A DNA stretch of 50,494 nucleotides from a virus. Its lineage: Duplodnaviria > Caudoviricetes. Shown here in pieces: positions 21,914 to 50,494 of the stretch. The DNA lies in the IMG/VR virus record IMGVR_UViG_3300031718_000015, positions 1-50,494 of that record; one strand, 5' to 3'. The first letter of the stretch is position 1, and the number at the start of each line of letters is the position of its first letter. Both the position numbers and the translations under genes were made by a program. Below the pieces are notes generated by a model. The model did not search any database. It was not told where the DNA came from and was given only the letters and a program-made list of their open reading frames with translations.

Positions 21914-21937
21914 ATCTATTCCAAGATGCAATAGCTA
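21913..21937. repeat. 25-bp quasi-palindrome, copy 4
   Basis: TATCTATTCCAAGATGCAATAGCTA; spans stop codon to next start codon. Confidence 0.92.
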
Positions 21938-26721: not shown

Positions 26722-26746
26722 TAGCTATTCCAAAGTGAAATAGATA
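26722..26746. repeat. 25-bp quasi-palindrome, copy 5
   Basis: TAGCTATTCCAAAGTGAAATAGATA; fills the whole gap between the stop at 26747 and the ATG at 26721. Confidence 0.92.
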
Positions 26747-26917
26747 TTAGCGAAAGCGTAAGCCGCCGCCCATGACTAGATAAACCAAGACTACAACCAA
26801 CACAATCACCAACAACCCGCTGGGTCCATAGGTGCCATAGTTATATGGCCCATACCAACCACCCCAATAGCCGCCACCACCGAATAAAAGAATCAAAATG
26901 ATAATAAGTAACAACAT
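26747..26917 (-). CDS. 56-aa two-TM Gly/Tyr-rich protein, DUF3309-like (not in ORF track)
   Basis: MLLLIIILILLFGGGGYWGGWYGPYNYGTYGPSGLLVIVLVVVLVYLVMGGGLRFR. Confidence 0.75.
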   Translation of the reverse strand: MLLLIIILILLFGGGGYWGGWYGPYNYGTYGPSGLLVIVLVVVLVYLVMGGGLRFR

Positions 26918-30154: not shown

Positions 30155-30582
30155 GGAATAGTTTCGGTGCTCATGAAGTTAGACGCTGCGTCACAACTCA
30201 TATCCCATTCAGCACAGATTGTTGGGTCACTTGGGTTGATATATTTATCGACCTTATAGGTGTAACTGGTATTGCCTGGGATATAAATACCAATCTTGGT
30301 TGTAGCATTCGGGGCAGGAGAAGCACTAGCACACGGACTAGCCGCCGAAGCGGGAGCGACATAACAATTAGCAGTGCCAATGCAATGAAAGGTTATAGAT
30401 TTGGTTCGACAGGTTGTAGAGGTCTGACAGGCTAAGAGCTTAGCTGCAGTTGACGCCGTGGGGCAGGCCACTGCGGTAGGACTGGCTGCACTACCTGGAG
30501 CCACTCCATTCATCTGGAAGCCAACAATGAAAGGGGTCCAGGCAAGACCAACTATTACCAAAGCCCAAAATTTCTTGTTCAT
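30151..30582 (-). CDS. Secreted-type Cys-rich protein
   Basis: MNKKFWALVIVGLAW signal-like N-terminus; 8 Cys. Confidence 0.6.
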   Translation of the reverse strand: MNKKFWALVIVGLAWTPFIVGFQMNGVAPGSAASPTAVACPTASTAAKLLACQTSTTCRTKSITFHCIGTANCYVAPASAASPCASASPAPNATTKIGIYIPGNTSYTYKVDKYINPSDPTICAEWDMSCDAASNFMSTETIP

Positions 30583-32105
30583 ACCCCTGCCCGAATACCA
30601 AAGCGGTTGTAGGTCTGTTTGAGATCAACGGTCTGAACTATCTTGGGACCATACTTGAGCTGGTCGAAGTCGAGTTCGGCGAGACAGAGATAGCGAATTA
30701 TATCGGGGAAGTCTTTGTTGATTTCAGCTGGGACTTCTTTCTTGTCCTTACCTTGGTTACCTTTATTACGTGCCCAATCAGCCCAGGCATAGCGGCCCAT
30801 TTGGTGAACCGGCCCGCCTTTGCCACGACACTTTTCGGTGAAGCGAAGGCGTGGTTTGGGCTTTGCGAGTAGATAGCTATGCACCATCGTGTGACCAATC
30901 TTGATATTGTCATCAGTGAAGGCCACAGGATAGCCATAGTTATTGTAAGCTTCTTCCCAAGACATCTCGTCGATTTGCTTTGCCTTGCCACGGTTGGGGT
31001 CCATGACACACAACACGGCTGGCATGGTGTGTCGTGAGTCAATGGCCATTAGCTCGGCCTGAATCTGTTCTAGTGAACCCTTGATCAAAGCCCAGTCAAA
31101 TATGATGATATCATTTTGTGGCGTTATCGTGGCCCACAGATGATAAACGGCCTTGCGCTCATGCGGGTCAACCCCCATTACAACCGGCCAGTCATATTGG
31201 AATTCCTGGTCGGGAATGATGAAGGGTGGCGCCTCGATAAATTCTTTATAAACACGTCCGACAAGAGAGACAGGGTTTCCAGTAACTCGCACTTCCCGTT
31301 CTTCTTCTGTAAGCGAATCAATAAAGTCCCGCTTTGCTTGTTCACTAATCCAAGGATTGTCGTCAATGGAGGACTTGAAGATTCGAACAAAGGATTTCTC
31401 CTCACCCTCGTCGAAGAGCCAGGTTTCCTTGAGGAGTGTGGCCGTGATGACGAATAAACCATTGAGGGTTACCAGGCCGCGAAGCACGGCGGTGTAAATA
31501 GTGCGGGGCGGGGGTTCGTCACACCATACAATGTCCCAGTCTTTACCTTCAGCCTTGTCGGCACCCTGATCATAAGTGCGGAAGAATAAGATTGAGCCGT
31601 TGGTATGCTCAATATGAACCACAGCCCCCGTGGGATTACGAACGACGTTCTTGATGAATTTCTTTGGACACCACGAGAGATAAGCGGGGAGGGTAACCTC
31701 TTTGTGAGAGTCAAAGTCCTCGGCGAAGACGCAGCCATAACAAGGGATTTTGAACTTCTTGGTGGGCCGGAAATCATGTCCCCACAAGATAGTGCCGGTC
31801 ATAAACTCGGCCATCTTGATAGCACCGGCAGTGGTCTTACCAGTCTTATTACCAGCAATAAATAGAAGCACCCTAACACTCGCATCATCGAGTGTCATGA
31901 AATCCCACTGCCCACCAGGATTGGGCATGTAGAATCTCACCGGATCAGCCTTGATGAGCTTGGCGTAGTCTTTGGTTTTCTTATCGAGTTCCCAGAGCTG
32001 GTGTGGAGTATAGGACTCGATTTCCTGTTTCGATGGCAAGAGGCGCGAGAGAGTACGCTCGATATATGTAGGCGGGATTTTGTCTACATAGAGTGGCTTG
32101 GCCAC
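30579..32105 (-). CDS. terL: Terminase large subunit
   Basis: AGNKTGKT Walker A, VWCDEPPP Walker B, TAT motif, GVDPH nuclease motif, C-terminal D..D..RY. Confidence 0.93.
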   Translation of the reverse strand: MAKPLYVDKIPPTYIERTLSRLLPSKQEIESYTPHQLWELDKKTKDYAKLIKADPVRFYMPNPGGQWDFMTLDDASVRVLLFIAGNKTGKTTAGAIKMAEFMTGTILWGHDFRPTKKFKIPCYGCVFAEDFDSHKEVTLPAYLSWCPKKFIKNVVRNPTGAVVHIEHTNGSILFFRTYDQGADKAEGKDWDIVWCDEPPPRTIYTAVLRGLVTLNGLFVITATLLKETWLFDEGEEKSFVRIFKSSIDDNPWISEQAKRDFIDSLTEEEREVRVTGNPVSLVGRVYKEFIEAPPFIIPDQEFQYDWPVVMGVDPHERKAVYHLWATITPQNDIIIFDWALIKGSLEQIQAELMAIDSRHTMPAVLCVMDPNRGKAKQIDEMSWEEAYNNYGYPVAFTDDNIKIGHTMVHSYLLAKPKPRLRFTEKCRGKGGPVHQMGRYAWADWARNKGNQGKDKKEVPAEINKDFPDIIRYLCLAELDFDQLKYGPKIVQTVDLKQTYNRFGIRAGV

Positions 32106-33284: not shown

Positions 33285-33309
33285 TAGCTATTCCAAATTG
33301 CAATAGCTA
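33285..33309. repeat. 25-bp quasi-palindrome, copy 6
   Basis: TAGCTATTCCAAATTGCAATAGCTA, in the divergent intergenic region. Confidence 0.92.
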
Positions 33310-33494
33310 AGCATTCTCCAGTTACTACAACCAGTCACATGATTTTTAGGGCGGAGAGACAGTGTGGGTTCCCTGCAAGGGTGGTGCCAAGGGACTGGGA
33401 CCCCCCACTGACATTAGCTACGCTAATAGGTGAGCCATTAGCTACCCTTATATCAGTTCAACTAATAGTCGCGGTCAGCTGAGCTAATAGACTT

Positions 33495-34383: not shown

Positions 34384-34923
34384 ATGGCAGACGGCAAAGC
34401 GTTGGAGTTGAAAGAGGGTGCGAGGATTGATGTGAGCGTTACGGTCTATGAGGATATCAAGACCAAGGACGCGAGCGGGCGGGTGACCGAGGGCAAGACC
34501 TTGCATGACGCGAATGGCCGGAAGGTTCAGACACGCGCCGAAGATGGCCAGCGGTTCGTGAGAAGGGTGCTCATGTACCCATTTCCAGCAGGGTTGATTG
34601 ATGATCCGCTGACGGGCAAGAAAGCGGCTGAGAATATGACCGCGCAGCAGATCGGCCATGCGCTGAATGAGTGGCTCAAGGAAGTCGAGGCGCTCAAGGC
34701 GAATGGTGGGCGGGTGAGCGTCAGCGATGGTAAGGATTCGGTTACGATGGAAGTGCCGATTGATGTCATTCCCACGCCGGCTGAAACCTTGGTCAAGGGT
34801 TTCAAGCTTGAGATTCAGGGACCGGTCAATCAGCAGCTAGTGAAGGACCACGTCACTGTCATCGGCGGCCAGGGCAAGGCAAAGAGCACACGAGGCCCGC
34901 TCAATCTCTCGTCACTCGGATAG
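34384..34923 (+). CDS. Hypothetical early protein with LxxLG C-tail
   Basis: AGGAG RBS; followed by a terminator; ends PLNLSSLG. Confidence 0.8.
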   Translation: MADGKALELKEGARIDVSVTVYEDIKTKDASGRVTEGKTLHDANGRKVQTRAEDGQRFVRRVLMYPFPAGLIDDPLTGKKAAENMTAQQIGHALNEWLKEVEALKANGGRVSVSDGKDSVTMEVPIDVIPTPAETLVKGFKLEIQGPVNQQLVKDHVTVIGGQGKAKSTRGPLNLSSLG

Positions 34924-34937
34924 TCAACTCCAACAAG

Positions 34938-34970
34938 AACCCCGATCAGCAATGGTCGGGGTTTTTTCTT
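34938..34970 (+). terminator. Rho-independent terminator
   Basis: AACCCCGATCA-GCAA-TGGTCGGGGTT followed by a T-tract. Confidence 0.88.
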
Positions 34971-34990
34971 GCCTGCGGCATAGCTCGGTG

Positions 34991-35281
34991 ATCTAAGGCA
35001 GCAACTTTTTCAATGAGTGTCAATATGACGCCCTGAGAGCTGCTTTGAGAGACTCTTAGATGGCATTCTCAAAGGCGTTATTGGAAACTATGGGCGCAAG
35101 CGAGAGTGGAGTAGTGTTTATATATATGTCTATATATATATTAACATATATACTCTAACACATTTGCTCTCACTCCTGCCCGCTGTTTCTATGTCAGTCT
35201 CTCTCAACCGCTCCTTTAGGGATAGTTTCCAATGGCCCCGCTGAGAGGCGATGACTAAGGGTCGCTGAAAGCGCCTTAGAT
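34991..35281. other. Nested inverted repeats around a (TA)n core; candidate replication origin
   Basis: TCTAAGGC/GCCTTAGA, GACTCTTAG/CTAAGGGTC, TTGGAAACTAT/ATAGTTTCCAA, GTGTT/AACAC and TATATATGT/ACATATATA around ~35117-35152. Confidence 0.5.
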
Positions 35282-35321
35282 GGCTATTGCTGCTAATAGC
35301 AAATTTTGCTCATCCAAGCAG

Positions 35322-35350
35322 TTGACAGCCCCATTGCCCAATGCTACTCT
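35322..35350 (+). promoter_or_regulatory. Sigma70 promoter
   Basis: TTGACA-17 nt-TACTCT with TGn; in-frame GTG 7 nt later. Confidence 0.72.
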
Positions 35351-35357
35351 CTTAACC

Positions 35358-35687
35358 GTGGGCACCCGAATAATTCCAGTCTCGCTGCTAGAAAAGAGAT
35401 ATGTTAAAGAGTGCGCGGCCTGCTACGAAATGTGGTTTGGTGAATATTGTCGCGTGAAGCTAGCAGGAATTATTAGTGAGTATACACCAAAGAAACCGCT
35501 TCCAGCACACCAACAAAGTATGCAAGAACCCACCACTTCTCTAACTCTAAAAATAGCACATGAAACTTGGTCATATGTTAGAACAGAAGCGAAACGACAT
35601 AACCTAACACTCTCTCAATATTGTCGTATTATACTACTCGATCTGGAGTTGCCTAATGCCAATCAAAACATCGCCCAAGAAGATTAA
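35358..35687 (+). CDS. Ribbon-helix-helix DNA-binding protein with N-terminal Cys cluster
   Basis: TSLTLKI..ETWSYVRTEAKRHNLTLSQYCRIIL; start re-called to the leaderless GTG. Confidence 0.6.
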   Translation: MGTRIIPVSLLEKRYVKECAACYEMWFGEYCRVKLAGIISEYTPKKPLPAHQQSMQEPTTSLTLKIAHETWSYVRTEAKRHNLTLSQYCRIILLDLELPNANQNIAQED

Positions 35688-35925
35688 ACTCGTGACGTAT
35701 GTTACAAGTATCGAACATGCCCAAGCAATGGAGACTGCAAGGTTGCAACAATTGTCACTAAGCGAGTGGCTCAGAGCACTCATTATTGGTGCATTTGCTA
35801 AAGTGGTTGTTATTCCAGCCCAAGTCAATCAACCTTATGTAAAACTCCCTGATGCAACGCAACTCCGTAATGATTTAATATTCGGTGATGTCAATGAACC
35901 CCACAATGAATCTGGAGACGAGTGA
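35656..35925 (+). CDS. Ribbon-helix-helix-like protein
   Basis: KLVTYVT..EHAQAMETARLQQLSLSEWLRALI; GGAG RBS. Confidence 0.55.
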   Translation: MPIKTSPKKIKLVTYVTSIEHAQAMETARLQQLSLSEWLRALIIGAFAKVVVIPAQVNQPYVKLPDATQLRNDLIFGDVNEPHNESGDE

Positions 35926-35926
35926 C

Positions 35927-36307
35927 ATGTGGCCAGGGCATGAAGCGACGATGTTCATTGACGATATTATGTTACCATGTCAACTAAATGCCCGTTTAGA
36001 TAGAGACCCTCAGAGACAACTATTGGTTGCGGTGTTTATAGACGCACTCTCATGTGTTGTAGACCTACGAACCAACAGTAAGCATCGCCTGGCCGCGCTC
36101 GATTGGTTTGATGATGATACACCCCATGACGACTACTCACTAACCTTTCTCTATATCTGTGAGGTGCTAGGTTATAACCCAGCCCAGTGGCGCCACTTCG
36201 TGCACCAACCACCAATCGCGGGCCGGCAGTTTAGGCGAGCTTCGGTTTCGAGAATCAAACGCGAGCGAACACGTAATCACTCGCTCAATCTCAAACAGCT
36301 CGGCTAA
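35927..36307 (+). CDS. Conserved helical hypothetical protein with LxxLG C-tail
   Basis: PQRQLLVAVFIDA...ALDWF...TFLYICEVLGYNP; GGAG RBS; ends SLNLKQLG; start uncertain. Confidence 0.7.
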   Translation: MWPGHEATMFIDDIMLPCQLNARLDRDPQRQLLVAVFIDALSCVVDLRTNSKHRLAALDWFDDDTPHDDYSLTFLYICEVLGYNPAQWRHFVHQPPIAGRQFRRASVSRIKRERTRNHSLNLKQLG

Positions 36308-36332
36308 TATCTATTGCAATATGGAATAGCTA
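36308..36332. repeat. 25-bp quasi-palindrome, copy 7
   Basis: TATCTATTGCAATATGGAATAGCTA; exactly fills the gap between TAA (36307) and ATG (36333). Confidence 0.92.
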
Positions 36333-36548
36333 ATGCCTGATAAAACAATCGAAATCGAAGACTGCAACTGTCTTGGCGAAAGTGAGAAAGCCTGTCTAAT
36401 CGAGCTTGGCGACGATTGTCGTAAGGCTGGCGAGGCAGTGTGGATACCTAAGTCACAGATACATGACGATAGTGAAGTGTGGAAGAAAGGGCAGGTAGGA
36501 AAGCTCGTGATCACCGAATGGATCGCAGAGCAGAAGGGTTTGATTTAA
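36333..36548 (+). CDS. Small conserved phage beta-barrel protein
   Basis: ESEKACLI...VWIPKSQI...LVITEWIAEQKGL. Confidence 0.75.
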   Translation: MPDKTIEIEDCNCLGESEKACLIELGDDCRKAGEAVWIPKSQIHDDSEVWKKGQVGKLVITEWIAEQKGLI

Positions 36549-36577
36549 TGACACCAGCATTAGCGCCGCTAATGGCG

Positions 36578-36634
36578 ATCATTAGGCGAATTCATGCTAT
36601 GATGCTTGATTGAGCAGCTCGCCTGTGCTATCCT
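36578..36634 (+). promoter_or_regulatory. Promoter with ATTAG-N5-TTCATGCT box
   Basis: Box ends 36598; TTGATT (36606)-17 nt-TATCCT with TGn. Confidence 0.68.
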
Positions 36635-36641
36635 ATTCATC

Positions 36642-36818
36642 ATGGAACGTGAGAATTACACCGAGCGAGAATGGAAAATGCTATTGCGAGGGGCTGTCAT
36701 TCTGGATGAAGCTTATGATACTCGCGCTAAATTCAAGCAGCTAATTTTAGGTAACGCATGGATAGAGTTAGGAAATAAACGGTGGACAGATAGAGAACCT
36801 TACGCAACTGGCCGATAG
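36642..36818 (+). CDS. Hypothetical protein, probably leaderless
   Basis: ATG 7 nt after the -10 box. Confidence 0.55.
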   Translation: MERENYTEREWKMLLRGAVILDEAYDTRAKFKQLILGNAWIELGNKRWTDREPYATGR

Positions 36819-36840
36819 GCCGCCGAAGGAGACCTGGGAA

Positions 36841-37044
36841 ATGTCAACGATGAAAACGGCTACGGGTTGTATCGAGCTGGGTGCGAATCATCCACTCGAA
36901 AGGGCGTTCGAGATTCCGAATGGTGAGCAGGATGGTGGGCCACGTAAATATATGGCTCGTGACCAAGTACGCATAGTACTCACTGGTCATTACGGCCGGC
37001 CCGCGCTATTCAACGTCATCGCATGGTGCGAGGCACAACGATGA
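36841..37044 (+). CDS. Hypothetical protein
   Basis: AAGGAG RBS; coupled to the next gene. Confidence 0.6.
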   Translation: MSTMKTATGCIELGANHPLERAFEIPNGEQDGGPRKYMARDQVRIVLTGHYGRPALFNVIAWCEAQR

Positions 37045-37391
37045 TACAGTGCTCTGCCTGTCAGAAGCCAGTTCTTGAGGTCTTTGAAGACCAATGCGAG
37101 CCATGCTACAAGAAGCTCAAGATCACTCCACTTGTCGATCTACGCAATCAAACTCTCAAAGAACTCTCTCGGATAGATGGGCTTTTAACGGCCAAGCTCG
37201 AAAAGCTCGCACGCTCAAGTCGTCACAATCTCAACATGAGCTTTACCTGTGAGTGTGGTGAGAAGCACAAGAGCGGGCTAGACCTAATCGCCCATCTCCC
37301 CGACTGCGCCGGCCCGAAACCCCAAACCCACCGGAATGGCTTTCACTCAAAGCTGATGAGACAGCCAATTTCGTTGAAGGACTTGGGCTAA
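37041..37391 (+). CDS. Zinc-finger protein with LxxLG C-tail
   Basis: CSAC..CEPC and CEC..H...C; ends QPISLKDLG. Confidence 0.7.
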   Translation: MIQCSACQKPVLEVFEDQCEPCYKKLKITPLVDLRNQTLKELSRIDGLLTAKLEKLARSSRHNLNMSFTCECGEKHKSGLDLIAHLPDCAGPKPQTHRNGFHSKLMRQPISLKDLG

Positions 37392-37392
37392 C

Positions 37393-37605
37393 ATGGGCCG
37401 CATACAAGACCGCCTTCACTCACAACTAATCGCTCACGACCCCAACAAGAACTGGGACCCCCAATGCGTAGGCTGTTCGATTGCCGCTCGCAAACTCGTC
37501 ATGATGTTCAATTGGCAATCGGGCCGAGGCTCCATCATACCGTGGGGTGATAGACCGGTCTGGGGTTACAATCAACAAAACATCAAACACAACGAGAGAG
37601 AATAA
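37393..37605 (+). CDS. Hypothetical protein
   Basis: 70 aa, coupled; H..H..CxxC. Confidence 0.55.
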   Translation: MGRIQDRLHSQLIAHDPNKNWDPQCVGCSIAARKLVMMFNWQSGRGSIIPWGDRPVWGYNQQNIKHNERE

Positions 37606-37889
37606 TGCAACTACAAGACGTTAGATGTTGCGATTTCTGTAACGACCCAAATGCTCCTTATGTTTGGGCATTTCGGGGGCAGACCATACCAGTTGGTACA
37701 CCAATGAAGATACTTCAAGAGCTTATTATCCACCCTGAATGGTTCGCTTGTGCTTACTGTCATCAAATGCTCCAGAACAGAAACGTCACGAGCCTACTCG
37801 ACCACAACAAAGACATCAAAACCCCAGAACAACGCAAGTATTTAGCTCGCTTTTACCAGTCGTTAATCGACAACCTACAAACCAACTAA
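37605..37889 (+). CDS. Putative zinc-binding protein
   Basis: CDFC...WFACAYC. Confidence 0.65.
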   Translation: MQLQDVRCCDFCNDPNAPYVWAFRGQTIPVGTPMKILQELIIHPEWFACAYCHQMLQNRNVTSLLDHNKDIKTPEQRKYLARFYQSLIDNLQTN

Positions 37890-37902
37890 AAGGAGAACGC
37901 CA

Positions 37903-38478
37903 ATGGCAAATGAACTAACCTACAAACAGCGCTACGACCTCACTCATAATATCAAAAAGGGTAAGACCACGCCACACAATGCTGACCTAATACTCGTCGA
38001 CCGCTCCGGCTCGATGGGCCTGACAGCTATCGGTGGCAAGACTCGCATTCAATGTGTACGAGAAGCACTGGCGCCCTTCAAAAATCGCGCGCATGTTCTA
38101 GCCTTCAATGAACGCTGCGACGAGGTTGACTGTGACGCAATTCCAGGCGCTTCAGGTGGCACCAACCTGGCCGGCGCCCTGCAAGTGGCTGAGACACTCG
38201 AACCCATTCATGTGCTCGTGATGTGTGATGGTGAACCAAACTCCAAACCACAAGCTCTCGAATGGGCCGCGAAGATTGCGACACAGTGTCTCATCGACGC
38301 TCTCTACATCGGGCCGGAATCGGACGGTGAGGCTATCGCGTTCATGAAAGAACTCGCAAGCGTCGGCCACGGTCGCTTCTCGATGTTCTCGCTGAATGAG
38401 CAATCGCCCTTGCTCTTGGGCCAGCGAGTTGCGACGCTATTGGCATTGCCCGACCCCTCGATGGTGGTGAAACTCTAA
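37903..38478 (+). CDS. von Willebrand factor A domain protein
   Basis: MIDAS DRSGS, GGTNL, VMCDGEPN; AAGGAG RBS. Confidence 0.88.
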   Translation: MANELTYKQRYDLTHNIKKGKTTPHNADLILVDRSGSMGLTAIGGKTRIQCVREALAPFKNRAHVLAFNERCDEVDCDAIPGASGGTNLAGALQVAETLEPIHVLVMCDGEPNSKPQALEWAAKIATQCLIDALYIGPESDGEAIAFMKELASVGHGRFSMFSLNEQSPLLLGQRVATLLALPDPSMVVKL

Positions 38479-38663
38479 TGTCAGCACCTTCACTTTGGAA
38501 ATTCGTTCTTAAAGTGCAACTCAAGAACGTCGTGAGCTATCATACGTTTCTCGCATCGAGTCGGGAGGCACTTTACGAAATACGTAACCAGTACCCAACC
38601 TGGGCCACAACTGAAGTGGTACAAGAATTAGAGTACTCAAAGGGCTTTCAGTTACTAGCATGA
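38478..38663 (+). CDS. Hypothetical protein
   Basis: 61 aa, overlaps both neighbours by coupling. Confidence 0.55.
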   Translation: MSAPSLWKFVLKVQLKNVVSYHTFLASSREALYEIRNQYPTWATTEVVQELEYSKGFQLLA

Positions 38664-39004
38664 ACGGCAACGGCTTTGTTGGTCATCTAACAGACCCGCC
38701 CTGCAAGATGCGTCTCGCGGAGATGTTCTATGACTCGAATTGTCCCCGCTGCTGTATGATCAAGAAGGTTGTCTTACTCAGACGCAAACGTCAGGAGCTT
38801 GGTTGTAGTGAAGAAGAAGAAACCGCCGCACAAACCATCAGTGACCAGCTTGTTGCGAAGTATGGTCTCACACGAGGCGAAGTATATGACCGCTTGTACA
38901 CGCCCCCACCAACTGTACAAGAGTTCAAAGAGACCGTAGTCTGGGCTGTGAGAAAACAAAAGGCAAAGGGCGGGCCGCGACGCACGCTCTCGGAGTTAGG
39001 TTAA
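38660..39004 (+). CDS. DUF2786-like protein with LxxLG C-tail
   Basis: IKKVVLL...SEEEETAAQ....LVAKYGLT; ends RRTLSELG. Confidence 0.6.
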   Translation: MNGNGFVGHLTDPPCKMRLAEMFYDSNCPRCCMIKKVVLLRRKRQELGCSEEEETAAQTISDQLVAKYGLTRGEVYDRLYTPPPTVQEFKETVVWAVRKQKAKGGPRRTLSELG

Positions 39005-39279
39005 TGTGGCAACAAGCACGTGTTATAAAAGGTCAGCACAAAGACCGTACACTGTGGGTCAAAACTGAACGACCACATAACTGCTCTTATGACAACACAC
39101 TCCACTTTCACTCCAACCTCAGTGACCCACCCCTTGGTGACGTGTGTGTTCGTTGTGACATGGTCGAATTACTGTCCATTTTTGAGGAAGTTATACCAAT
39201 TATCACTTCCTCCACGTGGGGCATCAAACCAGAAGAATGGGAACTAAAACCCACTATCGGACCAAAAGGAGCACCCTAA
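39004..39279 (+). CDS. Hypothetical protein
   Basis: TAATG coupling on both sides. Confidence 0.6.
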   Translation: MWQQARVIKGQHKDRTLWVKTERPHNCSYDNTLHFHSNLSDPPLGDVCVRCDMVELLSIFEEVIPIITSSTWGIKPEEWELKPTIGPKGAP

Positions 39280-39434
39280 TGGCAGATGTAAAACACGGTG
39301 GTTGTGCAAAATGTGGCTCGAAGACCGAACCCGAACTCACGAGTCGCCCCTTCGGTGATCACAGCGAGGCGCTCTGTAAAGAGTGTGCTGAGAAAATCGA
39401 CACCCAACGCGGCGAGATTCAGCAACGTGGGTGA
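39279..39434 (+). CDS. Small zinc-ribbon protein
   Basis: AAGGAG RBS; CAKC...LCKEC. Confidence 0.6.
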   Translation: MADVKHGGCAKCGSKTEPELTSRPFGDHSEALCKECAEKIDTQRGEIQQRG

Positions 39435-39912
39435 GCACCACTGGCTCGCAGGCTCGCAACTTATAGATAAGGTCAAATCGAGCTACCTTATGGAAGAAAC
39501 TGTACGAGAAGCATGGCGCAAGCGAGCACTGCTTGGTATTAGTGATAGAGTGGCTAACGTCAGTGGCCCCTGCATCCACGATGGGTGTGGGGGTCAGGGC
39601 TTTGACCTAACCGACGAGTTGTGTTCAACTCACTTCGTAACCGACGTAATCGCCAACATGGAAGACGTCCTCCATGAAGCCAACATCAACTGGGCCGCGG
39701 CCTGCGTTGCCGAGAGTAACCAGAAAGAAATCTGGCGTTGCACCTGTGGTTTTCTTGGCACCTTTCAAGAACGTGAATTGCACTTTAATGCCCTTCATAG
39801 TGATGCAAGTGTCAGTCATGGTCCACCAGTGCGTAATCAGGTGGTTCGAACAACACAAACGCGTGCGCCGAGCACCCACAAACAAGCTATCAAGCTAGGA
39901 GACCTGGGATAA
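39427..39912 (+). CDS. Cys/His-rich protein with LxxLG C-tail
   Basis: C....C...C..H and CTC...H; ends QAIKLGDLG; start uncertain. Confidence 0.62.
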   Translation: MGEHHWLAGSQLIDKVKSSYLMEETVREAWRKRALLGISDRVANVSGPCIHDGCGGQGFDLTDELCSTHFVTDVIANMEDVLHEANINWAAACVAESNQKEIWRCTCGFLGTFQERELHFNALHSDASVSHGPPVRNQVVRTTQTRAPSTHKQAIKLGDLG

Positions 39913-40100
39913 TGGAACTAACATTCACCAAAGCAAAGGAGACCAAGGGTACATGGCAGTTTCAAGAGACGGGTTTTCCAGTCGGGGCCAGACCCGTTGT
40001 CGGAACGCTCTATCTCACCAAAGACGCGCTTAAAGCTATGGGTTGGCCACAAGAACTCAAGGTCATCATCAATGGCACCAACGGTGGTCAAGTGTCATGA
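39912..40100 (+). CDS. Small conserved phage protein
   Basis: F...KETKGTWQFQE...VGTLYLTK.AL. Confidence 0.7.
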   Translation: MELTFTKAKETKGTWQFQETGFPVGARPVVGTLYLTKDALKAMGWPQELKVIINGTNGGQVS

Positions 40101-40372
40101 GCGCCCCCTCGACCACACCCCGAATCGCCTTGAGCGATAATCTCTCTGCCCGAACCTATCGGGCAGTTGCCCGTATAGCCTATGAGATGGGCATTCAGCC
40201 TGACGACTTGAATGATTGTCGCTATTTATGTTGGCTCACAGAGCTACTCAAGCACGTCAAAGACACCCCCAATAACTTCCCTCGTGGGAAATACTCGACC
40301 ATCAAATTACTCAACGACCTAACCAGCGAGGCGGCCCGCGAAGTGGCGCGAATCTACTATGGCAACGTCTAA
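40097..40372 (+). CDS. Hypothetical protein
   Basis: ATGA overlap with the upstream gene. Confidence 0.55.
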   Translation: MSAPSTTPRIALSDNLSARTYRAVARIAYEMGIQPDDLNDCRYLCWLTELLKHVKDTPNNFPRGKYSTIKLLNDLTSEAAREVARIYYGNV

Positions 40373-40556
40373 TTGGCAACACACAATCTGCGACATTTGT
40401 TGGATAAACAAGTTTCCAGACCGAGAAGCCTTTCGTCTACGTGACGCAAGACAAGAAACCTGTTGCTTCTGTGGTACACATACCAATAGTGGCATATATG
40501 TCCGACAAGACCCAGAAACCGTCGGTTGTGGAGGCGAACATGACACAGACGTTTGA
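40359..40556 (+). CDS. Small zinc-binding protein
   Basis: H.ICDICW...CCFCG..T.SGIYVR.DP. Confidence 0.65.
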   Translation: MATSNWQHTICDICWINKFPDREAFRLRDARQETCCFCGTHTNSGIYVRQDPETVGCGGEHDTDV

Positions 40557-40821
40557 ACCCTACTACACCTCCGATGGTCCTAGCCAACAACGTCTCTGGC
40601 GCTTTCAAAACGGTCTTGGAGCCAGTGTGGTCAAACGCAACGACGCACTAGAAATGGCGGTGATTAAACCCACCGGAGATAAGTCATTTTGGTTGCACTA
40701 TAAGACACCCTTCGGTCCGCCCAAGGCTGGTCTAACCGAAGACCAAGTCCAACAGTTTATATCCGAGATAGCAACTTATCCGAGTGAACTCGCAAAGGCG
40801 GGCCAGGAAGCGAAGTCATGA
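40540..40821 (+). CDS. Conserved phage hypothetical protein
   Basis: GGAGG RBS; FQNGLGASVV...EMAVIK...GLTEDQV. Confidence 0.7.
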   Translation: MTQTFEPYYTSDGPSQQRLWRFQNGLGASVVKRNDALEMAVIKPTGDKSFWLHYKTPFGPPKAGLTEDQVQQFISEIATYPSELAKAGQEAKS

Positions 40822-41144
40822 ACGACTACGAATTACGGAAGTTGGCTGAGACAACACGAGATAATGATGAGAAGTGGCGTCACCATTTCAACTCAAATAT
40901 AACTCCACAGATTGTGCTGCGCCTGCTCGACGAGAATGCGGCGCTACGCAAGGAACTTGATGACCGCTTAAAACTGGATTTAGCTGTCGAGAACGCCGCG
41001 CTCAAGGAACAGATTGCAGCGCTGACAAGCGGCGGTGCGTGTCTCTGCTCATGCGGCGCGCCAATGGCGCATATCTGCGAGAATCAGGCTCATGTGACCG
41101 AAGCTCTCGCCTCAGACGACGCCGCAGCGAAGGAGAAGTCATGA
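40818..41144 (+). CDS. Ead/Ea22-like protein
   Basis: ELRKLAE...TPQIVLRLLDE followed by a coiled coil. Confidence 0.55.
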   Translation: MNDYELRKLAETTRDNDEKWRHHFNSNITPQIVLRLLDENAALRKELDDRLKLDLAVENAALKEQIAALTSGGACLCSCGAPMAHICENQAHVTEALASDDAAAKEKS

Positions 41145-41386
41145 CTGATCAGCAACAAGCAACAGCGCGGCACGATGCGGCAGTTGGGCTACTACAAACG
41201 TATCATGACCTCAATCGTCGTTTCGGCTTCTGTCTAAAAGAACTGCGTCAGCGGGCGCAACTCTCGTTGAGGCAACTTGGCAAGCTCGTAGAGACAGACC
41301 ATGCCTATCTTCACCGCTTAGAACATGGAGTAAAGACAAACCCCTCAGAAGAACTCGTCAAACGGCTGCATAGGTGCTTGCGATGA
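41141..41386 (+). CDS. XRE-family HTH protein
   Basis: FGFCLKELRQRAQLSLRQLG...AYLHRLEHG..NPS. Confidence 0.82.
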   Translation: MTDQQQATARHDAAVGLLQTYHDLNRRFGFCLKELRQRAQLSLRQLGKLVETDHAYLHRLEHGVKTNPSEELVKRLHRCLR

Positions 41387-41715
41387 CCGACCTCGAACAA
41401 TGGCAAGCGGCGTGTGAGCGGGTGGGCTATGAACAACACAGTTGTTGTAGGAACGACCATCCTGACCATATTCATGATTGGAGAGGAAGATGTGCAACTC
41501 GTAACTATCCGCCCCTCGGCGACCCCGCAGCGGTGGTGAAGATGTTGGAGTGGCTAGTTAAAGCGAACGACCCGACCTATCTACGTGCAAGGGAAAAAGC
41601 TAATGCCGTTCGTGATTTATGGATGGAGATTTGGAATGCCACCCGATATCACGGCGAAACGCTACCCCTCGCCCTCGCCGCCGCCGTGAACGCACTTCCA
41701 ACGGAGAAAGCATAA
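41383..41715 (+). CDS. Hypothetical protein
   Basis: Coupled ORF; ends TLPLALAAAV. Confidence 0.6.
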   Translation: MTDLEQWQAACERVGYEQHSCCRNDHPDHIHDWRGRCATRNYPPLGDPAAVVKMLEWLVKANDPTYLRAREKANAVRDLWMEIWNATRYHGETLPLALAAAVNALPTEKA

Positions 41716-41716
41716 A

Positions 41717-42367
41717 ATGGGCGTCGTGATTCAGTTCTGGGGTGATGCTATTCAACCTGGGGATAAACCCGTTTTTATATTTCCACTAATACAGGGTTAT
41801 CTAAAAGGGCAAACACGTGACCCCACTAACACGGCGAACAACTTAGTTAGTTCGTTAAGTGGGATCGTATTGACCGGTTCTGATAGTGCTGGCTCAGTCA
41901 ACCTTGACCAGGTTGGTAATGCCGCCAACACCGAAGCCGGCCTGATAGTCGGGCCGCCACATGAAGACCCTTCGACAGGACAGGTAGCCAACCTTACGGT
42001 TCAAACATCTAAGAATGGCAAGGCACTACAAAACGGTGTGGGCGTCCTCGCCGAGATCGGCGCAAGTGGTATCTATTCTTACACTCTCGATTCCACCGAA
42101 ACTCAAGAACCAGGCTCCCTTCTCGTTGCGGTCGAACCCATTAACCCCAAGGCCATCACCGACGTCTATATCTACCCCGCGTTTCTCAATTGTCGTATCA
42201 TGAAACCTGGTATACCTATCACTAAAGTTACGCGTGAGTCTATTCTCGAAGCCCTAACCGGCCCGAATAGCCCCTTTAGTAATCTCGAAAACTACATCAA
42301 CCAAGCCATTCGTGATCTACTCGGTAACCAAATGACCACCAAACCAACCTTTCGTAGGGATAGTTAA
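41717..42367 (+). CDS. Hypothetical beta-rich protein resembling virion-protein domains
   Basis: SKNG...EIGASGIYSYTLDSTETQEPGSL; GGAG RBS. Confidence 0.65.
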   Translation: MGVVIQFWGDAIQPGDKPVFIFPLIQGYLKGQTRDPTNTANNLVSSLSGIVLTGSDSAGSVNLDQVGNAANTEAGLIVGPPHEDPSTGQVANLTVQTSKNGKALQNGVGVLAEIGASGIYSYTLDSTETQEPGSLLVAVEPINPKAITDVYIYPAFLNCRIMKPGIPITKVTRESILEALTGPNSPFSNLENYINQAIRDLLGNQMTTKPTFRRDS

Positions 42368-42715
42368 ATGGACCCCGACACCTTTGCAGAGATTCTCGGT
42401 CTCGTCGAATCCGATGGTAACCCCAACGCCAAACTAGGTGACGGTGGTCGCGCATTTGGTCGCTGGCAAGTCCACCCCGACTGGGTCTTTGAATGGGCCC
42501 TGCGTCTAAAGGTCACGCCCAAACTCAATGAGCTGTGGGACGACTTCATGCGTCGTCTAATCAAAGCCTTCTACAACTTTCCATTTCACCTGAAGCTTCA
42601 ACCCATAGAGGTCGCGATGACATTCCATATTGGCCACATCACACATGTCGGGCAACCCAATTGGGACGATGATTATGCAACGAGGTTCAAGTTCTACGCC
42701 GCGCAGCAGCATTAG
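42368..42715 (+). CDS. Lysozyme-fold protein (SLT / i-type-like)
   Basis: VESDGNPNA..GDGGRAFGRWQVH. Confidence 0.7.
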   Translation: MDPDTFAEILGLVESDGNPNAKLGDGGRAFGRWQVHPDWVFEWALRLKVTPKLNELWDDFMRRLIKAFYNFPFHLKLQPIEVAMTFHIGHITHVGQPNWDDDYATRFKFYAAQQH

Positions 42716-42764
42716 ATCATTTCATGCTGCTATGCTTGATTGATCATAGGCATTCTGCTATAAT
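42708..42764 (+). promoter_or_regulatory. Promoter with AGCATTAG-N5-TTCATGCT box
   Basis: Box at 42708-42728; TTGATT (42736)-17 nt-TATAAT with TGn. Confidence 0.78.
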
Positions 42765-42790
42765 GCAGTCACAACGGAGGACCAATTTAG

Positions 42791-43006
42791 ATGGCAAGGC
42801 TTTCTAGCACTTCTACAGGAACCGATATCACGGTCGAACCCAAGCTCATCTCCAAACCGGTGAATGAGCTAACGGACGACGAGTTACTCGCGGAGATCGA
42901 ACGCCTACGTGGGGAGCGTGGGACAGCTGTCCAGGCTGCGCGTCGGGGTGGCGGACCGAGTGGACCAAGACCATCACAACCAATCAAATTGGGAGATCTG
43001 GGCTAG
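42791..43006 (+). CDS. 71-aa protein with LxxLG C-tail
   Basis: GGAGG RBS; ELTDDELLAEIERLR helix; ends QPIKLGDLG. Confidence 0.75.
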   Translation: MARLSSTSTGTDITVEPKLISKPVNELTDDELLAEIERLRGERGTAVQAARRGGGPSGPRPSQPIKLGDLG

Positions 43007-43194: not shown

Positions 43195-43510
43195 GGAACA
43201 ACTCGACAAAATCGTCCAACAAAACATCGACGATGGGGCGGCATTCCCATATCTACTAACCCATTGTCCCCGCTCACTAGCTCTCCTCGACGAACTCCTC
43301 AAAAAGGGCCAGGACACCCACGAGCCAATGGACTGGATTGCACTCGGTCTCAATGGCAATCGTGACCATGCCATCGACCACCTTCGTAAAATGATGGGAC
43401 CACGCCTTATCGGCGATCACGACAATCACTGGCTCAACGCGGTGTGTCGCTTGATGTTCTGCCTAGAATTACTCGAGGCCGCGAAAGATGTTCAAACCCC
43501 TGGGACATAG
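43187..43510 (+). CDS. Degenerate DUF5664-like (dATP/dGTP diphosphohydrolase-like) protein
   Basis: KG..TH...DW...DHAIDHL...D.HWLNAVCRLMF pattern. Confidence 0.45.
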   Translation: MTKEQLDKIVQQNIDDGAAFPYLLTHCPRSLALLDELLKKGQDTHEPMDWIALGLNGNRDHAIDHLRKMMGPRLIGDHDNHWLNAVCRLMFCLELLEAAKDVQTPGT

Positions 43511-43778
43511 AATACTCGTGAAACGCTGGCCCGAAGTCGAAGAACGTGAGAGTGGTCTAATCCTGCCAGCGGCGGCCCGTGAGCTACCACAAATCGGCCG
43601 TGTCATCGCGGTGAGCGGCCCCATTGACGTTGAGGTGGGAGATGACGTGATATTCGAGAAGTTTGTCAAAACCGACTATCGAATCTACATCAAAGACAAC
43701 GAGTACTTACTCTTACCTTATGACGCTCTCTACGCTGTGATTGTCGGTGGCGTGAGCGGGATAGCTATTGCAGGATGA
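43488..43778 (+). CDS. groES: Co-chaperonin GroES-like
   Basis: FKPLGHRILVK...ESGLILP...GRVIAV...VEVGDDVIFEKF...EYLLL. Confidence 0.9.
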   Translation: MFKPLGHRILVKRWPEVEERESGLILPAAARELPQIGRVIAVSGPIDVEVGDDVIFEKFVKTDYRIYIKDNEYLLLPYDALYAVIVGGVSGIAIAG

Positions 43779-43786
43779 AATAGATA
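43762..43786. repeat. 25-bp quasi-palindrome, copy 8
   Basis: TAGCTATTGCAGGATGAAATAGATA; its last base is the A of the next ATG. Confidence 0.92.
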
Positions 43787-44805
43787 TGCCTTTATCTGAC
43801 GTAATTCTCGACAAGGAATGGTACGATAACTCGCTGGTCGACCTAATGTTGGCTTGCAAACGCAAAGCCTTCATTGCCAGAATCTACAACGGTGGTCTTG
43901 AAGCCGGTGTGGGTTATGGTGCTCTCTTCGGCACCTGTATGCACGGCTTTAGAGCCACTTACTATAGCTGGTGGGGCAAAGAGAGCGAAGAACGTCGCCG
44001 GCTTCGTGGCATGCGTAAGTTTCTAGAGCTTCACGAAGAACTCTTCAAGGGTCCGATGTTAGATACCCTCGATAGCAAGCACACCAAAGAAGCCGGCCTG
44101 GGTATGATTGATCACTATTGTGATAGTTATCTCCAAGAGGATACGCTCCTAAAGCCCATAGCGGTAGAGCTATCCGGTGCCATCGAGATCAAGCCCCGCG
44201 ACGGCGACCCTTTCGACTTCGTGCCCTTCTGGTACGCCTTTAAGATTGACGGTATTCACCAACGCCTTTCTTATGGTGATTATTGGGTCGCTGAGATGAA
44301 AAACACTGGTGGTGGTGTCGCACGTGAACTCAAGAAGCTCCGCTTATCACGTCAACCGACTGGTTATGTCTATTGCGCTCGTCAGTTTCCTGGCCCGCCC
44401 GTCTCTGGTTGTATGCCCGACGTCAATGGCGTGATGGTCAAGACCCGTGAATGCCAACGCGATTTCTACCCCAAAACTCAACGAGACACCGACCAGTGGC
44501 GCCTGGAAACCATCAACATCGTCGAAGACTGGCGACGAATAGCTGATCTCATAGAGCACCGTAATGAAAGTGACAAAAGACTCACCTTCGAGCAAATCCT
44601 CTCACTCTACTATCAAAATACCGCCGAGTGCACTTCATACGGTCTGTGTGCTTTCTACGACATCTGTCGAGATGGATTCTCTCCCGCGACTCTTGCGGCG
44701 TTTCGGCGTAATAGTTGGAACCCGCTCGAAGATCAAACGCACCTTGAAAGGAAAGAAATCAAAACAGCCGAGGGGCTAATGGAAATTCACGAGGTGACAC
44801 CCTAA
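43786..44805 (+). CDS. PD-(D/E)XK exonuclease (RecB/Cas4-like)
   Basis: DNS...CKRK, FGTCMH, VE..., KIDG...VAEMK, Q..GY, C-terminal C..YG.CAF..IC. Confidence 0.82.
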   Translation: MPLSDVILDKEWYDNSLVDLMLACKRKAFIARIYNGGLEAGVGYGALFGTCMHGFRATYYSWWGKESEERRRLRGMRKFLELHEELFKGPMLDTLDSKHTKEAGLGMIDHYCDSYLQEDTLLKPIAVELSGAIEIKPRDGDPFDFVPFWYAFKIDGIHQRLSYGDYWVAEMKNTGGGVARELKKLRLSRQPTGYVYCARQFPGPPVSGCMPDVNGVMVKTRECQRDFYPKTQRDTDQWRLETINIVEDWRRIADLIEHRNESDKRLTFEQILSLYYQNTAECTSYGLCAFYDICRDGFSPATLAAFRRNSWNPLEDQTHLERKEIKTAEGLMEIHEVTP

Positions 44806-48475: not shown

Positions 48476-48699
48476 AAATCTTTCTCTACGCTGACGAAGA
48501 TAACAACATGCGTTTCAATGCTGAAATCGCACGCGAATACATACTCGAAATCATAGGTGATGCCGAACCGCAACGCACACGTGTTATGAACATCAAAAAC
48601 TCCAAAGAACTCGCCAAGCACTTCTTCACGGCAGCTATTTTAGTTGCCCAAGATGAACGCGCAATCGAGATTTTCAAACACGGGAAGTTTTCAACATGA
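48472..48699 (+). CDS. Hypothetical protein
   Basis: GGAG RBS; ATGA overlaps on both sides. Confidence 0.6.
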   Translation: MKIFLYADEDNNMRFNAEIAREYILEIIGDAEPQRTRVMNIKNSKELAKHFFTAAILVAQDERAIEIFKHGKFST

Positions 48700-50494
48700 G
48701 CCAATATTACGTCGGGCCGGAAGGTCCGTTAAATGCTAAGTTAGCCATCGTAGCCGAAAAACCCAGTTACGATGAAATCGCACAGAAGCGTCCACTCATC
48801 GGCCCAACCGGCCAGATGTTAATGCGAATGCTCAATCGTGTAGGGTTAAAACGAGAAGATGTCTACCTCTCTAATGCAGTCAAACGTTTTGATGCTGTTG
48901 GCAATCCAACAACTGAAGATATCGCGCGGGAACAACCCAGTTTATTCAGGGAACTTTCTACGTTACCCAACCTTAATTGTATTGTGGCGTTGGGTAATAG
49001 TGCTCTCGTCAGTCTCAGCAATTTTCATTACAATGACATTGGACACCGTCGCGGGAGTAAGATTCTTGCTTTCAATCGTAAGAAGATGATCCCGACATTT
49101 CATACCAGTTATGTCGTCCAAGGCAACTGGGAAATGGGGCCGGTTGTAGAGTTCGACCTCGCACGAGCCAAGAAAGAAAGTGAGTTTCCTGAGATTCGCC
49201 GGCCCGAACGCTACTACAACGTCCTACCCACATTCCGAGAGGCTTGTGATTGGTTAGAACACCTAGAACAAGATGGTGAGTGGCTCAGCTTTGACATAGA
49301 AACGCGCAAGGCCGGCCCGCACATGAACTGGTATCTCTCGACCATCGCATTCGCTAGTGACCCCCGTGAAGGCTTCTGTATTCCGTTTAGTCTACAAGAT
49401 CGCAAGTCTTACTGGCCCATTGAACAAGAAGCTATCTTATGGAAACGCATTCAACGTCTCTTAGCTCTCTCAGGTAAACGTTATGTCACGCAAAATGGAC
49501 TATTTGACTGTTGGCATCTCTACCGTCATGGTATTACAACTCCTTATATGGCGCGGGGCTTTGATACCATGTACGCTCACAGGTATCTTGCTGCTGATTT
49601 GCCTCACGCCTTGGATTTTCTCGTTTCGATTTATACCGAGGAAGAATACTACAAAGATGAAAGTGGCAAACACGAAAGTGAATTTCGAGTAAGTGACGAG
49701 CAATTCCAAGTCTACAACGCCAAAGACGCCGCGATAACACTTGAGGTAGCATTTGGTGAAATCGAAGATATGAAGGAGTTGGGCTTGTATGATTATTATA
49801 TGACCCATCTCCAAACTCAATTCGACGTCTTACACGCAATGAGGGTAAATGGCTTTCATGTCGACAAGAAAAAGAAAAGTGAACTCATCGATCGATTTGC
49901 AGCCGATATCCGTAATCGAGAGGCGAGCATTCAGCAAACTCTTGGATGGGTACCCAATACTAAGTCACCTATTGACTTGTCCAAAGTGTTTGAGAGATAC
50001 GGGATTACTCCTAAGAGAACGCCATCAACTAAGCAACCAGTCATTGACGAAGAGCACTTGCTTTCGTACGCCCAAAGGTGGCCAGCAGCAAGAGATATTC
50101 TAACCGAGTTTATTAGAATTAATCAACAACGCACCATGCTCTCGATGTATGCGTTGATGACGACTGACCCTAAGGACTTCTACCACGCGAGCTATGACCT
50201 AGCGAAGGCCCGAACGCTACGCCTTGCGAGTGAGGGACCATCCGAGGGCCATCTATTACCCAAGAAAAAGAACGCCGGCCCGCAAATGCAGAACCAACCG
50301 CATTCTATGCGGGCCATGTTTATTCCTGATAACCCTGAACTCGACGAATTAACCCAATTTGATCTCAAACAAGCCGAGCCTCATGTCGTAGCTTGGGACG
50401 CCAACGACACCCTTTATATTAATGCCCTAATGACCAATAAGAACGTCCACAAGATAACGGCCTGTATAGTATTTAAGGCTTGGGACGCTAGTCA
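48696..50494 (+). CDS. UDG-like + 3'-5' exonuclease + family A DNA polymerase (805 aa when joined to the stop at 746; absent from the ORF track)
   Basis: Hand translation. UDG4-like IVAEKPS..E....PLIGPTG..YLSNAVK..VALG..PTFHTS; exonuclease FDIET, QNGLFD, DTM, YNAKD; polymerase LRLAS, QMQNQP, FDLKQAE. Confidence 0.9.
   Translation, partial: MSQYYVGPEGPLNAKLAIVAEKPSYDEIAQKRPLIGPTGQMLMRMLNRVGLKREDVYLSNAVKRFDAVGNPTTEDIAREQPSLFRELSTLPNLNCIVALGNSALVSLSNFHYNDIGHRRGSKILAFNRKKMIPTFHTSYVVQGNWEMGPVVEFDLARAKKESEFPEIRRPERYYNVLPTFREACDWLEHLEQDGEWLSFDIETRKAGPHMNWYLSTIAFASDPREGFCIPFSLQDRKSYWPIEQEAILWKRIQRLLALSGKRYVTQNGLFDCWHLYRHGITTPYMARGFDTMYAHRYLAADLPHALDFLVSIYTEEEYYKDESGKHESEFRVSDEQFQVYNAKDAAITLEVAFGEIEDMKELGLYDYYMTHLQTQFDVLHAMRVNGFHVDKKKKSELIDRFAADIRNREASIQQTLGWVPNTKSPIDLSKVFERYGITPKRTPSTKQPVIDEEHLLSYAQRWPAARDILTEFIRINQQRTMLSMYALMTTDPKDFYHASYDLAKARTLRLASEGPSEGHLLPKKKNAGPQMQNQPHSMRAMFIPDNPELDELTQFDLKQAEPHVVAWDANDTLYINALMTNKNVHKITACIVFKAWDAS
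50368..50494. repeat. Terminal overlap, copy 2 (identical to 1-127)
   Basis: Exact match to the window start. Confidence 0.97.

Follow-up and report, generated by a model that had tools for sequence, protein, structure and literature searches.

The stretch of DNA considered here, called the window below, is IMG/VR record IMGVR_UViG_3300031718_000015 at its full length of 50,494 bp, a complete virus record with direct terminal repeats of 127 nt that derives from an uncultured phage of soil-metagenome origin. Its plus strand carries a block of about 33 open reading frames (ORFs), from 34.4 to 48.7 kb, and within this block six genes encode proteins that share a short C-terminal tail. The original prediction had placed six L-x-x-L-G ends in this region, and all six are present in the sequence: KAKSTRGPLNLSSLG (34923), RERTRNHSLNLKQLG (36307), KLMRQPISLKDLG (37391), KAKGGPRRTLSELG (39004), APSTHKQAIKLGDLG (39912) and GPRPSQPIKLGDLG (43006). 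Aligned at their C-termini the tails read PLNLSSLG, SLNLKQLG, PISLKDLG, RRTLSELG, AIKLGDLG and PIKLGDLG, and thus fit [L/I/R]-x-L-x-x-L-G-stop. Counted back from the stop, Gly at -1 and Leu at -2 and -5 are found in all six, and an aliphatic residue at -7 in five. The carriers are termed early proteins below, a label that we infer from the position of their genes.

Such ends are far more frequent in the window than composition predicts. In a greedily chosen set of 78 ORFs of at least 50 aa, six end in L..LG where 0.046 are expected from composition (Poisson 1.3e-11). Within the proteins as a whole the same pattern occurs at 16 of 16,075 positions (9.5 expected), and six of the 16 are exact C-termini. 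When every two- and three-position pattern in the last six residues of 80 ORFs was scanned without bias, G-1/L-2/L-5 ranked first (P=1.5e-11; corrected for 166,000 patterns, about 2.5e-6). The identical scan in four distantly related control phage genomes, three of which share the architecture of the window and one of which was picked for another reason, gave a best P of about 6e-4, which is noise at that number of tests. A count of these termini against expectation, as the original prediction had proposed, therefore reveals an excess here and no comparable pattern in the four other phages. Over all six frames, L..LG precedes the stop in eight of 2816 stop-preceded 8-mers; six of these lie on stop-to-stop frames of 71-206 codons and the other two on frames of only 18 and 25 codons. 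The looser form [ILVMF]..[ILVMF]G closes eight of 582 frames of at least 40 codons, the two additional cases being antisense or non-coding.

The protein bodies that precede the tails are unrelated. No pair was found in an all-against-all BLASTP at E<1, the profiles of the families built around tailed proteins 1 and 5 (families 1 and 5) match with an hhalign probability of 0.2%, and none of the six proteins belongs to a Pfam, PHROG or NCBIfam family beyond sub-threshold noise. The 15 residues before each tail have a net charge of +3 to +5 and consist to 67-100% of K, R, P, G, S, T, A, Q or N. Codons vary among the copies, with Leu encoded by CTC, TTG, TTA, CTA or CTG (five different codons among the six Leu pairs), Gly by GGA, GGC or GGT, and termination at TAA or TAG. 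Unrelated bodies, a basic flexible linker and differing codons had all been claimed from the first inspection, and all three descriptions hold. Since the Leu codons differ among the six tails, recent copying of DNA is unlikely, and the pattern looks like selection for a genome-specific form.

For two of the carriers the database gene call is shorter than the ORF listed in Table 1, at 126 aa from a later Met for tailed protein 2 and 140 aa from 39490 for tailed protein 5. Tailed protein 2 has only itself as a database match (7 candidates). By eye, proteins 3 (37023-37391) and 5 (39490-39912) show an aromatic-x-C-x-C-G ... H element resembling a zinc finger about 30-45 residues before the tail, which finds no support from BLAST, and several further small ORFs of the plus-strand block are also Cys-rich.

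Table 1. Features of the window and of the related contig L004, with positions in the window unless a contig is named.
Feature	Positions	Strand	Tail (positions)	Remarks
Tailed protein 1	34384..34923	+	LNLSSLG (34900-34920)	179 aa; family 1; stop TAG
Tailed protein 2	35885..36307	+	LNLKQLG (36284-36304)	140-aa ORF; stop TAA
Tailed protein 3	37023..37391	+	ISLKDLG (37368-37388)	122 aa; Cys/His-rich
Tailed protein 4	38660..39004	+	RTLSELG (38981-39001)	114 aa; family 4
Tailed protein 5	39298..39912	+	IKLGDLG (39889-39909)	204-aa ORF; family 5; two Cys/His clusters
Tailed protein 6	42791..43006	+	IKLGDLG (42983-43003)	71 aa
Stand-alone vWA-domain protein	37903..38478	+		191 aa; inside the tailed-gene block; Pfam VWA_3 and VWA_2 below curated cut-off
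GroES (Cpn10)	43488-43778	+		Pfam 5e-16; in the replication block
345-aa ORF, possible nuclease	43768-44805	+		
UDG-exonuclease-PolA gene	48696 to end, continuing to 746 (63-746 / 126-746 after repeat)			spans the 127-nt terminal repeat
DUF3987 primase/helicase				downstream of the UDG-exonuclease-PolA gene
Virion genes	~2.2 to 33.2 kb	-		
PurD-like ATP-grasp protein	2189-3562	-		Pfam GARS_A 7.3e-6, just under cut-off; last virion-module gene
Major capsid protein	18686-19600	-		HK97-like by PHROG major-head matches
Head-module ORFs	19613-22363		none	
SU10-like portal	22360-24813	-		weak match
Large terminase	30579-32105	-		best deposited-phage match 27.6% identity
26-nt palindrome copies	868-893, 7612-7637, 16399-16424, 21913-21938, 26722-26747, 33285-33310, 36308-36333, 43762-43787			
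Family-4 orthologue	L004 693-1244		KDMDF	
RuvB, full length	L004 1276-2274		YDRDF	Pfam RuvB_N 2.7e-52; adjacent to the family-4 orthologue

Orthologues of three of the tailed proteins, at 22-64% identity, mostly retain an aliphatic-x-x-aliphatic-Gly-COOH end. Out of 84 candidates, 13 proteins belong to family 1 at E<=1e-3. Two of these are C-terminal fragments and were set aside; in the other 11, which extend to the C-terminus, an aliphatic-x-x-aliphatic-G end is present in nine (VTSIG, VESIG, ITQIG, ISAIG, LSSIG, ISSIG, ITDIG, ITSIG and the query). A search of 1.84 billion representatives with family 5 returned 13 matches at E<=1e-3, of which two were left out of the alignment as long multi-stretch proteins (946 aa, E 6e-5, and 524 aa, E 1.7e-4). 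Among the remaining 11 members the full motif is present in six (LGDLG, LEEIG, IEEIG three times and VEEFG), and two more end in an aliphatic residue and Gly with no aliphatic at -5. Family 4 has two orthologues, both adjoining a vWA gene on metagenome contigs, one of which (contig L005, 60% identity) ends INPEDVG. Identities in these families reach as low as 22-45%. In none of the families can the linkers be aligned, but they stay basic: of the 21 different sequences tabulated for families 1 and 5, 20 have a linker of net positive charge. That orthologues in three families retain the tail behind diverging linkers, and that the pattern is absent from the four control phages, supports the earlier claim of protein-level selection for a common tag.

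The form of the tail differs between the window and its relatives. All 22 tabulated tails close with Gly, whereas Leu at -2, present in six of six window tails, is found in only one of 16 in relatives (Ile in 13, Val in one and Phe in one; Fisher 9.4e-5), and Leu at -5 in two of 16 (Fisher 3.8e-4). A different end is seen on contig L004, a more distant relative whose vWA protein is 49% identical to that of the window. There, the family-4 orthologue (45% identity) ends KDMDF and the adjacent full-length RuvB ends YDRDF, so that D-x-D-F-COOH closes two of three ORFs (chance about 3.5e-8). An orthologue of a tailed protein thus bears, at the same place, a tail of a known docking-peptide kind.

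Contigs L004 and L005, both short, were the metagenome contigs found with the vWA alignment, and two Logan contigs, of 11,599 and 47,450 bp, also contain vWA homologues, the shorter one probably together with a family-1 member. No relatives were found among viral contigs by way of protein 1, the 345-aa ORF or alignments A1, A3 and A4 (A4 being that of the vWA protein), among metagenome contigs by way of A1, or among genome contigs by way of A1 or A4. With tblastn, neither proteins 1 and 5 nor the vWA protein had a match in deposited phages, and A1, A2 and A4 have no sequence relatives in the PDB.

Four of the six tails also have a role at the nucleotide level, in that their codons at -4 and -3 (AAGGAC, TCGGAG, GGAGAC and GGAGAT) form the ribosome-binding site of the next, overlapping gene. 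In tailed gene 3, AAGGAC encodes K-D and provides the ATG at 37393 with its Shine-Dalgarno sequence; the stop of tailed gene 4 overlaps the following ATG (TAATG); in tailed gene 5, GGAGAC serves the ATG at 39912; and the TAG stop of tailed gene 6 overlaps a GTG at 43006. The relative L005 has GAGGAC at the same place in its tail, again serving as a Shine-Dalgarno sequence. The other two tailed genes, those ending at 34923 and 36307, are uncoupled: gene 1 has no coupled gene downstream and is followed by a G+C-rich hairpin at about 34938-34963 and a gap of 356 nt, and a 26-nt palindrome begins immediately after the stop of gene 2. Because of the overlap, positions -4 and -3 are variable and often acidic.

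These overlaps raise the question of whether the ends have any protein function at all, or are a by-product of translational coupling (Shine-Dalgarno sequence plus spacer) or a mobile DNA module of gene boundaries. The stops that overlap or abut the next start in four of the six genes, the like arrangement in L005, and the sharing of some codons between pairs of tails (CTCAATCTC in 34923 and 36307, and also 39912 compared with 43006) would all be explained in this way. However, among the 12 tightly coupled plus-strand genes (gap -4 to +1) the tail is present in four and absent from eight, and two tailed genes are not coupled at all. Family 1, whose member here is followed by the hairpin and the gap, keeps the tail in nine of 11 members, and the four control phages are rich in coupled genes but have no such pattern. 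The Shine-Dalgarno sequence accounts for -4 and -3 only; the constrained positions -5, -2 and -1 lie outside it and their codons differ between copies. An origin without protein function is therefore scarcely credible, and the original prediction was right both in recognising four genuine overlaps and in holding that they do not explain the Leu and Gly residues or the uncoupled copies at 34923 and 36307.

At the protein level, a short C-terminal epitope joined to a globular body by a flexible, divergent linker, as in the tails of phages T4 and T7, leads to the reading that the tail is a lineage-specific C-terminal docking motif for one common receptor, to which we give about an even chance. 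The motif would begin with a disordered linker of basic character and close with aliphatic-x-x-aliphatic-Gly, its carboxylate free; in the window phage it takes the form [L/I]-x-L-x-x-L-G. It would tether otherwise unrelated early-region proteins to a single receptor. Contacts would be made by the two aliphatic side chains and the carboxylate of the terminal Gly, leaving -4 and -3 free, and the receptor would vary between lineages along with the dialects of the tail. Such dialects make a phage-encoded or host-strain-specific receptor more likely than a universally conserved host protein.

The closest parallels are found in two well-studied phages. In T4, gp43, gp55 and gp33 are described as having highly similar, interchangeable C-termini that follow a divergent, probably unstructured linker and bind the gp45 clamp (PMC2988020). 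As in T4, unrelated proteins of one phage here carry a similar C-terminal epitope behind a divergent linker, and it is kept in relatives. The T4 tails are hydrophobic and acidic and have the clamp as receptor; in the window the linker is basic, a Gly end follows the two Leu, and the carriers are six small proteins with no assigned function. In T7, gp4 and gp2.5 dock on the family-A polymerase by acidic tails that end in Phe. The C-terminal peptide of T7 gp4, DTDF, is modelled on the T7 polymerase in a replisome structure (PMC12339929). The likeness to this system is twofold: the window phage encodes its own family-A polymerase (UDG-exonuclease-PolA) and a DUF3987 primase/helicase, and in L004 D-x-D-F-COOH ends both the orthologue of tailed protein 4 and the product of the gene beside it. 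The window tails themselves differ, none of the six having D-x-D-F: they are not acidic, and their last residue is Gly instead of Phe.

The original prediction had proposed hub docking with clamp-binding motifs and the tails on single-stranded DNA-binding protein (SSB) as analogies. Docking as such is favoured by the architecture and by the D-x-D-F end in L004, but the motif does not fit known clamp-binding or SSB-tail motifs, and the Pfam and PHROG scans of about 60 window proteins turned up no clamp. Bacterial beta-clamp-binding motifs follow QL[SD]LF or QLxLxL, with Leu/Phe spacing of i, i+2 and i+3 or i+4. In the window tails the spacing is i, i+2, i+5, and Gln is found at the corresponding place in none of the six. 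The 216-aa ORF at 41717-42367 was considered as a hidden clamp and dropped for want of support. Two further protein ends were examined as possible members of the tail set and rejected, namely that of GroES (...GIAIAG), which is encoded by a 26-nt palindrome and has a different spacing, and that of the major capsid protein (...NPLG), which has no Leu at -5.

Several observations weigh against docking on a common receptor. The motif, its enrichment, its conservation in orthologues, the dialects and the D-x-D-F replacement are observed, while binding and its target are what we infer. Conservation of the tail is seen for three of the six proteins (families 1, 4 and 5), and within these families it is not universal, as two family-1 members end IDPNALS and FDPDAAW and three of the 11 family-5 members have no tail. 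No sliding clamp was found among about 60 window proteins scanned with Pfam and PHROGs. The PolA, DUF3987, Sak4-like and DUF669 proteins of the window phage have no tail (DUF3987 ends ...GSQGP and DUF669 ...SVEPL), unlike the helicase and SSB of T7. A basic linker with an aliphatic tail is the opposite charge pattern to that of the T4 and T7 tails; acidic residues do occur (four of the six window tails have one at -3, and most tails of family 5 at -4/-3), within a tail that is aliphatic and behind a linker of net +3 to +5. The dialects may mirror different hosts rather than a phage-encoded receptor, and a protease degron fits a carboxylate-dependent aliphatic C-terminal signal equally well.

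In the last of these explanations the tail would be a tag that a host AAA+ protease, or its adaptor, recognises for degradation, giving the early proteins a short and co-ordinated lifetime. ClpX reads non-polar C-terminal tags such as that of ssrA (...LAA) as well as basic-plus-aliphatic ends such as that of MuA. Like the peptides of the ssrA/SspB type, the window tails are short, strictly C-terminal and aliphatic with a free carboxylate on a small residue, the SspB peptide also lying behind a long flexible linker, and their carriers are six small proteins of a presumed early block. They differ in having no Ala-Ala end. Moreover, the long linker, conserved in its basic character, would be unneeded for a simple degron, and the orthologue in L004 carries D-x-D-F instead, which is a known docking peptide and not a known degron. 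We regard degradation as a serious alternative, though one that is probably not the answer.

A second way of addressing several unrelated proteins to one place would be capsid targeting, with the tail attaching to a scaffold or to the inside of the HK97-fold capsid, so that the six proteins are packaged and co-injected. T4 offers a precedent, since its capsid-targeting sequence is reportedly a short packaging signal common to several unrelated proteins. Targeting peptides of encapsulin cargo are described as C-terminal and borne on flexible linkers, with the consensus DGSLGIGSLKG and native forms such as PLTVGSLRRGG and NTGGDLGIRK (PMC7925596). The window tails resemble these in position, in the linker, in their unrelated carriers, in the aliphatic residues at i, i+2 and i+5 (five of six tails) and in the presence of an HK97-like capsid protein that could act as the reading shell. 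They differ, however, in stopping at Gly, with no Lys or Arg after the last Leu, and in the core, as exact GSL is found in none of the six and GDL in two. The tailed genes lie at 34.4-43.0 kb in the plus-strand replication and early block, away from the capsid gene on the minus strand, the ORFs of the head module are all without the tail, and zinc-finger-like bodies would be an odd cargo; packaging is accordingly improbable. The invariant terminal Gly, for its part, could point to a conjugation handle, whose carboxylate an E1-like or ATP-grasp ligase would activate and join to a target amine. The phage does encode a divergent PurD-like ATP-grasp protein, with three phosphoribosylamine-glycine ligases as its best PDB sequence matches (E 7e-4 to 0.017), and PurD activates a glycine carboxylate. 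But this gene is the last of the virion module, E1, E2 and ubiquitin-like (Ubl) families were not found in Pfam scans of the window proteins, and the bodies are unrelated and so share no Ubl fold. The only other phage with a homologue, MW202796.1 (26% identity, same position, unannotated; L009 42140-43471), shows no enriched C-terminal pattern, with two of its 68 ORFs ending in Gly, and conjugation appears very improbable.

If docking on a common receptor is nonetheless the function of the tail, three kinds of receptor can be considered, each of them unlikely when taken singly. A host hub is a little less so than the rest, followed by the replisome of the phage itself (UDG-PolA or the DUF3987 helicase-primase). 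The third candidate, at best as probable as the replisome, is the vWA protein, whose gene lies among the tailed genes and in which a metal would ligate the terminal carboxylate as in C3b-factor B. It has 10 homologues at 59-77% identity and is more conserved than the tailed families, and in the 11 sequences the residues D33, S35, S37, T87 and D109 (D-x-S-x-S, T, D) are invariant, which we take to be a MIDAS (metal ion-dependent adhesion site) motif. The gene adjoins family 4 in three genomes (the window, L004 and L005) and has no tblastn match in the deposited-phage collection, including the four tail-free control phages. The relatives were retrieved through the vWA gene, and co-occurrence of vWA and tail is therefore not independent evidence. 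In the ESM Atlas, small vWA clusters are mostly viral; for tailed protein 1 that resource yielded nothing of use.

Chelation of a protein C-terminal carboxylate by the MIDAS metal of a vWA domain is described for C3b-factor B and C4b-C2 (PMC12847986). The likeness lies in a free C-terminal carboxylate as key ligand and in a vWA gene, located among the tailed genes, whose product has invariant D-x-S-x-S, T and D; the difference is that those complexes are eukaryotic and extracellular, while here tail and vWA are linked by gene neighbourhood and co-occurrence at the level of the clade. A complex prediction with the vWA alignment, Mg and tailed protein 6 gave a score of 0.01 (mark 0.32); controls were not folded, and it carries no weight for or against binding. 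In its most specific form, which is unlikely, the proposal would be a lineage-private pair of tag and receptor, in which the metal site of the vWA protein reads the Gly carboxylate and the two aliphatic residues and so gathers the six effectors. Tag and receptor would then co-evolve in dialects, with L-x-x-L-G in the window, forms with I or V in close relatives and D-x-D-F in the distant one. In literature searches no function turned up for small phage vWA/MIDAS proteins, and nothing was found on early proteins of phages having such a C-terminal motif in common. Shared docking tails are known already as a principle from T4 and T7; the motif, its carriers, the lineage dialects and the possible receptor are new.

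The remainder of the genome belongs to an orphan lineage, whose nearest deposited phages have the same gene order yet only about 27% identity in PolA. The stretch is present in two soil-metagenome DNA runs, one of them possibly the source run, as identical contigs with no variants, and no RNA run is listed for it. Besides the tailed genes, the plus-strand block carries the vWA protein, an Xre-type helix-turn-helix protein, GroES, a Sak4-like ATPase, a DUF669 protein and a ParB-methylase fusion. The GroES gene of MW202796.1 sits in its head module, compared with the replication block in the window phage. The 345-aa ORF next to GroES has no family match in Pfam, PHROG or NCBIfam; inspection of its sequence and synteny with the annotated PD-(D/E)XK nuclease of MW202489.1 suggest that it may be a nuclease. 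The gene for UDG-exonuclease-PolA crosses the terminal repeat and is therefore split into two pieces in the linear record, with Pfam UDG, 3'-5' exonuclease and DNA_pol_A domains at 48696-50492 and then 63-746, which places a family-A DNA polymerase in the phage. No tRNA, tmRNA or Rfam family was found in the window, and promoter and terminator scans of it gave a signal no better than shuffled sequence.

Repeated elements are found in both gene blocks. A 26-nt imperfect palindrome (about TAKCTATTSCA-N4-TGNAATAGMTAW) occurs in eight copies, all at gene boundaries, one directly after the stop of tailed gene 2 and another encoding the last residues of GroES. As RNA these palindromes form no more than weak hairpins; operators, or promoter or terminator elements specific to the phage, are possible roles for them. 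Two plus-strand genes each have, upstream, one copy of a 37-nt direct repeat (78% identity), at 36580-36616 and 42710-42746. The latter copy overlaps, immediately ahead of tailed gene 6, a sigma-70-like site (TTGATT-17-TATAAT with TG), and the pair may be repeated promoters. On the minus strand, runs with a 12-nt period (GTNGCN-rich, encoding Ala/Thr/Val-type protein repeats) at 5725-5978, 17943-18013 and 29564-29835 are common to three virion genes, those of the 1071-aa, 216-aa and 967-aa ORFs. The 967-aa protein, which has a pectate-lyase-like segment, is 33% identical to the 1071-aa protein over 243 residues.

Early genes of uncultured phages mostly lack a known function, and a shared tag would mark six of them as clients of one receptor. 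Six separate unknowns would in this way become one tractable question, for which a single peptide pull-down could find the hub. The hub-and-tail logic of the T4 and T7 replisomes may be in wider use, with other motifs, and the dialects, among them the change to the T7-like D-x-D-F, amount to a natural experiment in how motif and receptor co-evolve. Portable tags as short as these are also of use for tethering, targeting or controlled degradation. Were the vWA protein to be the receptor, the widespread small viral vWA proteins would gain their first function, and the tails would amount to a viral protein-addressing code of a new kind.

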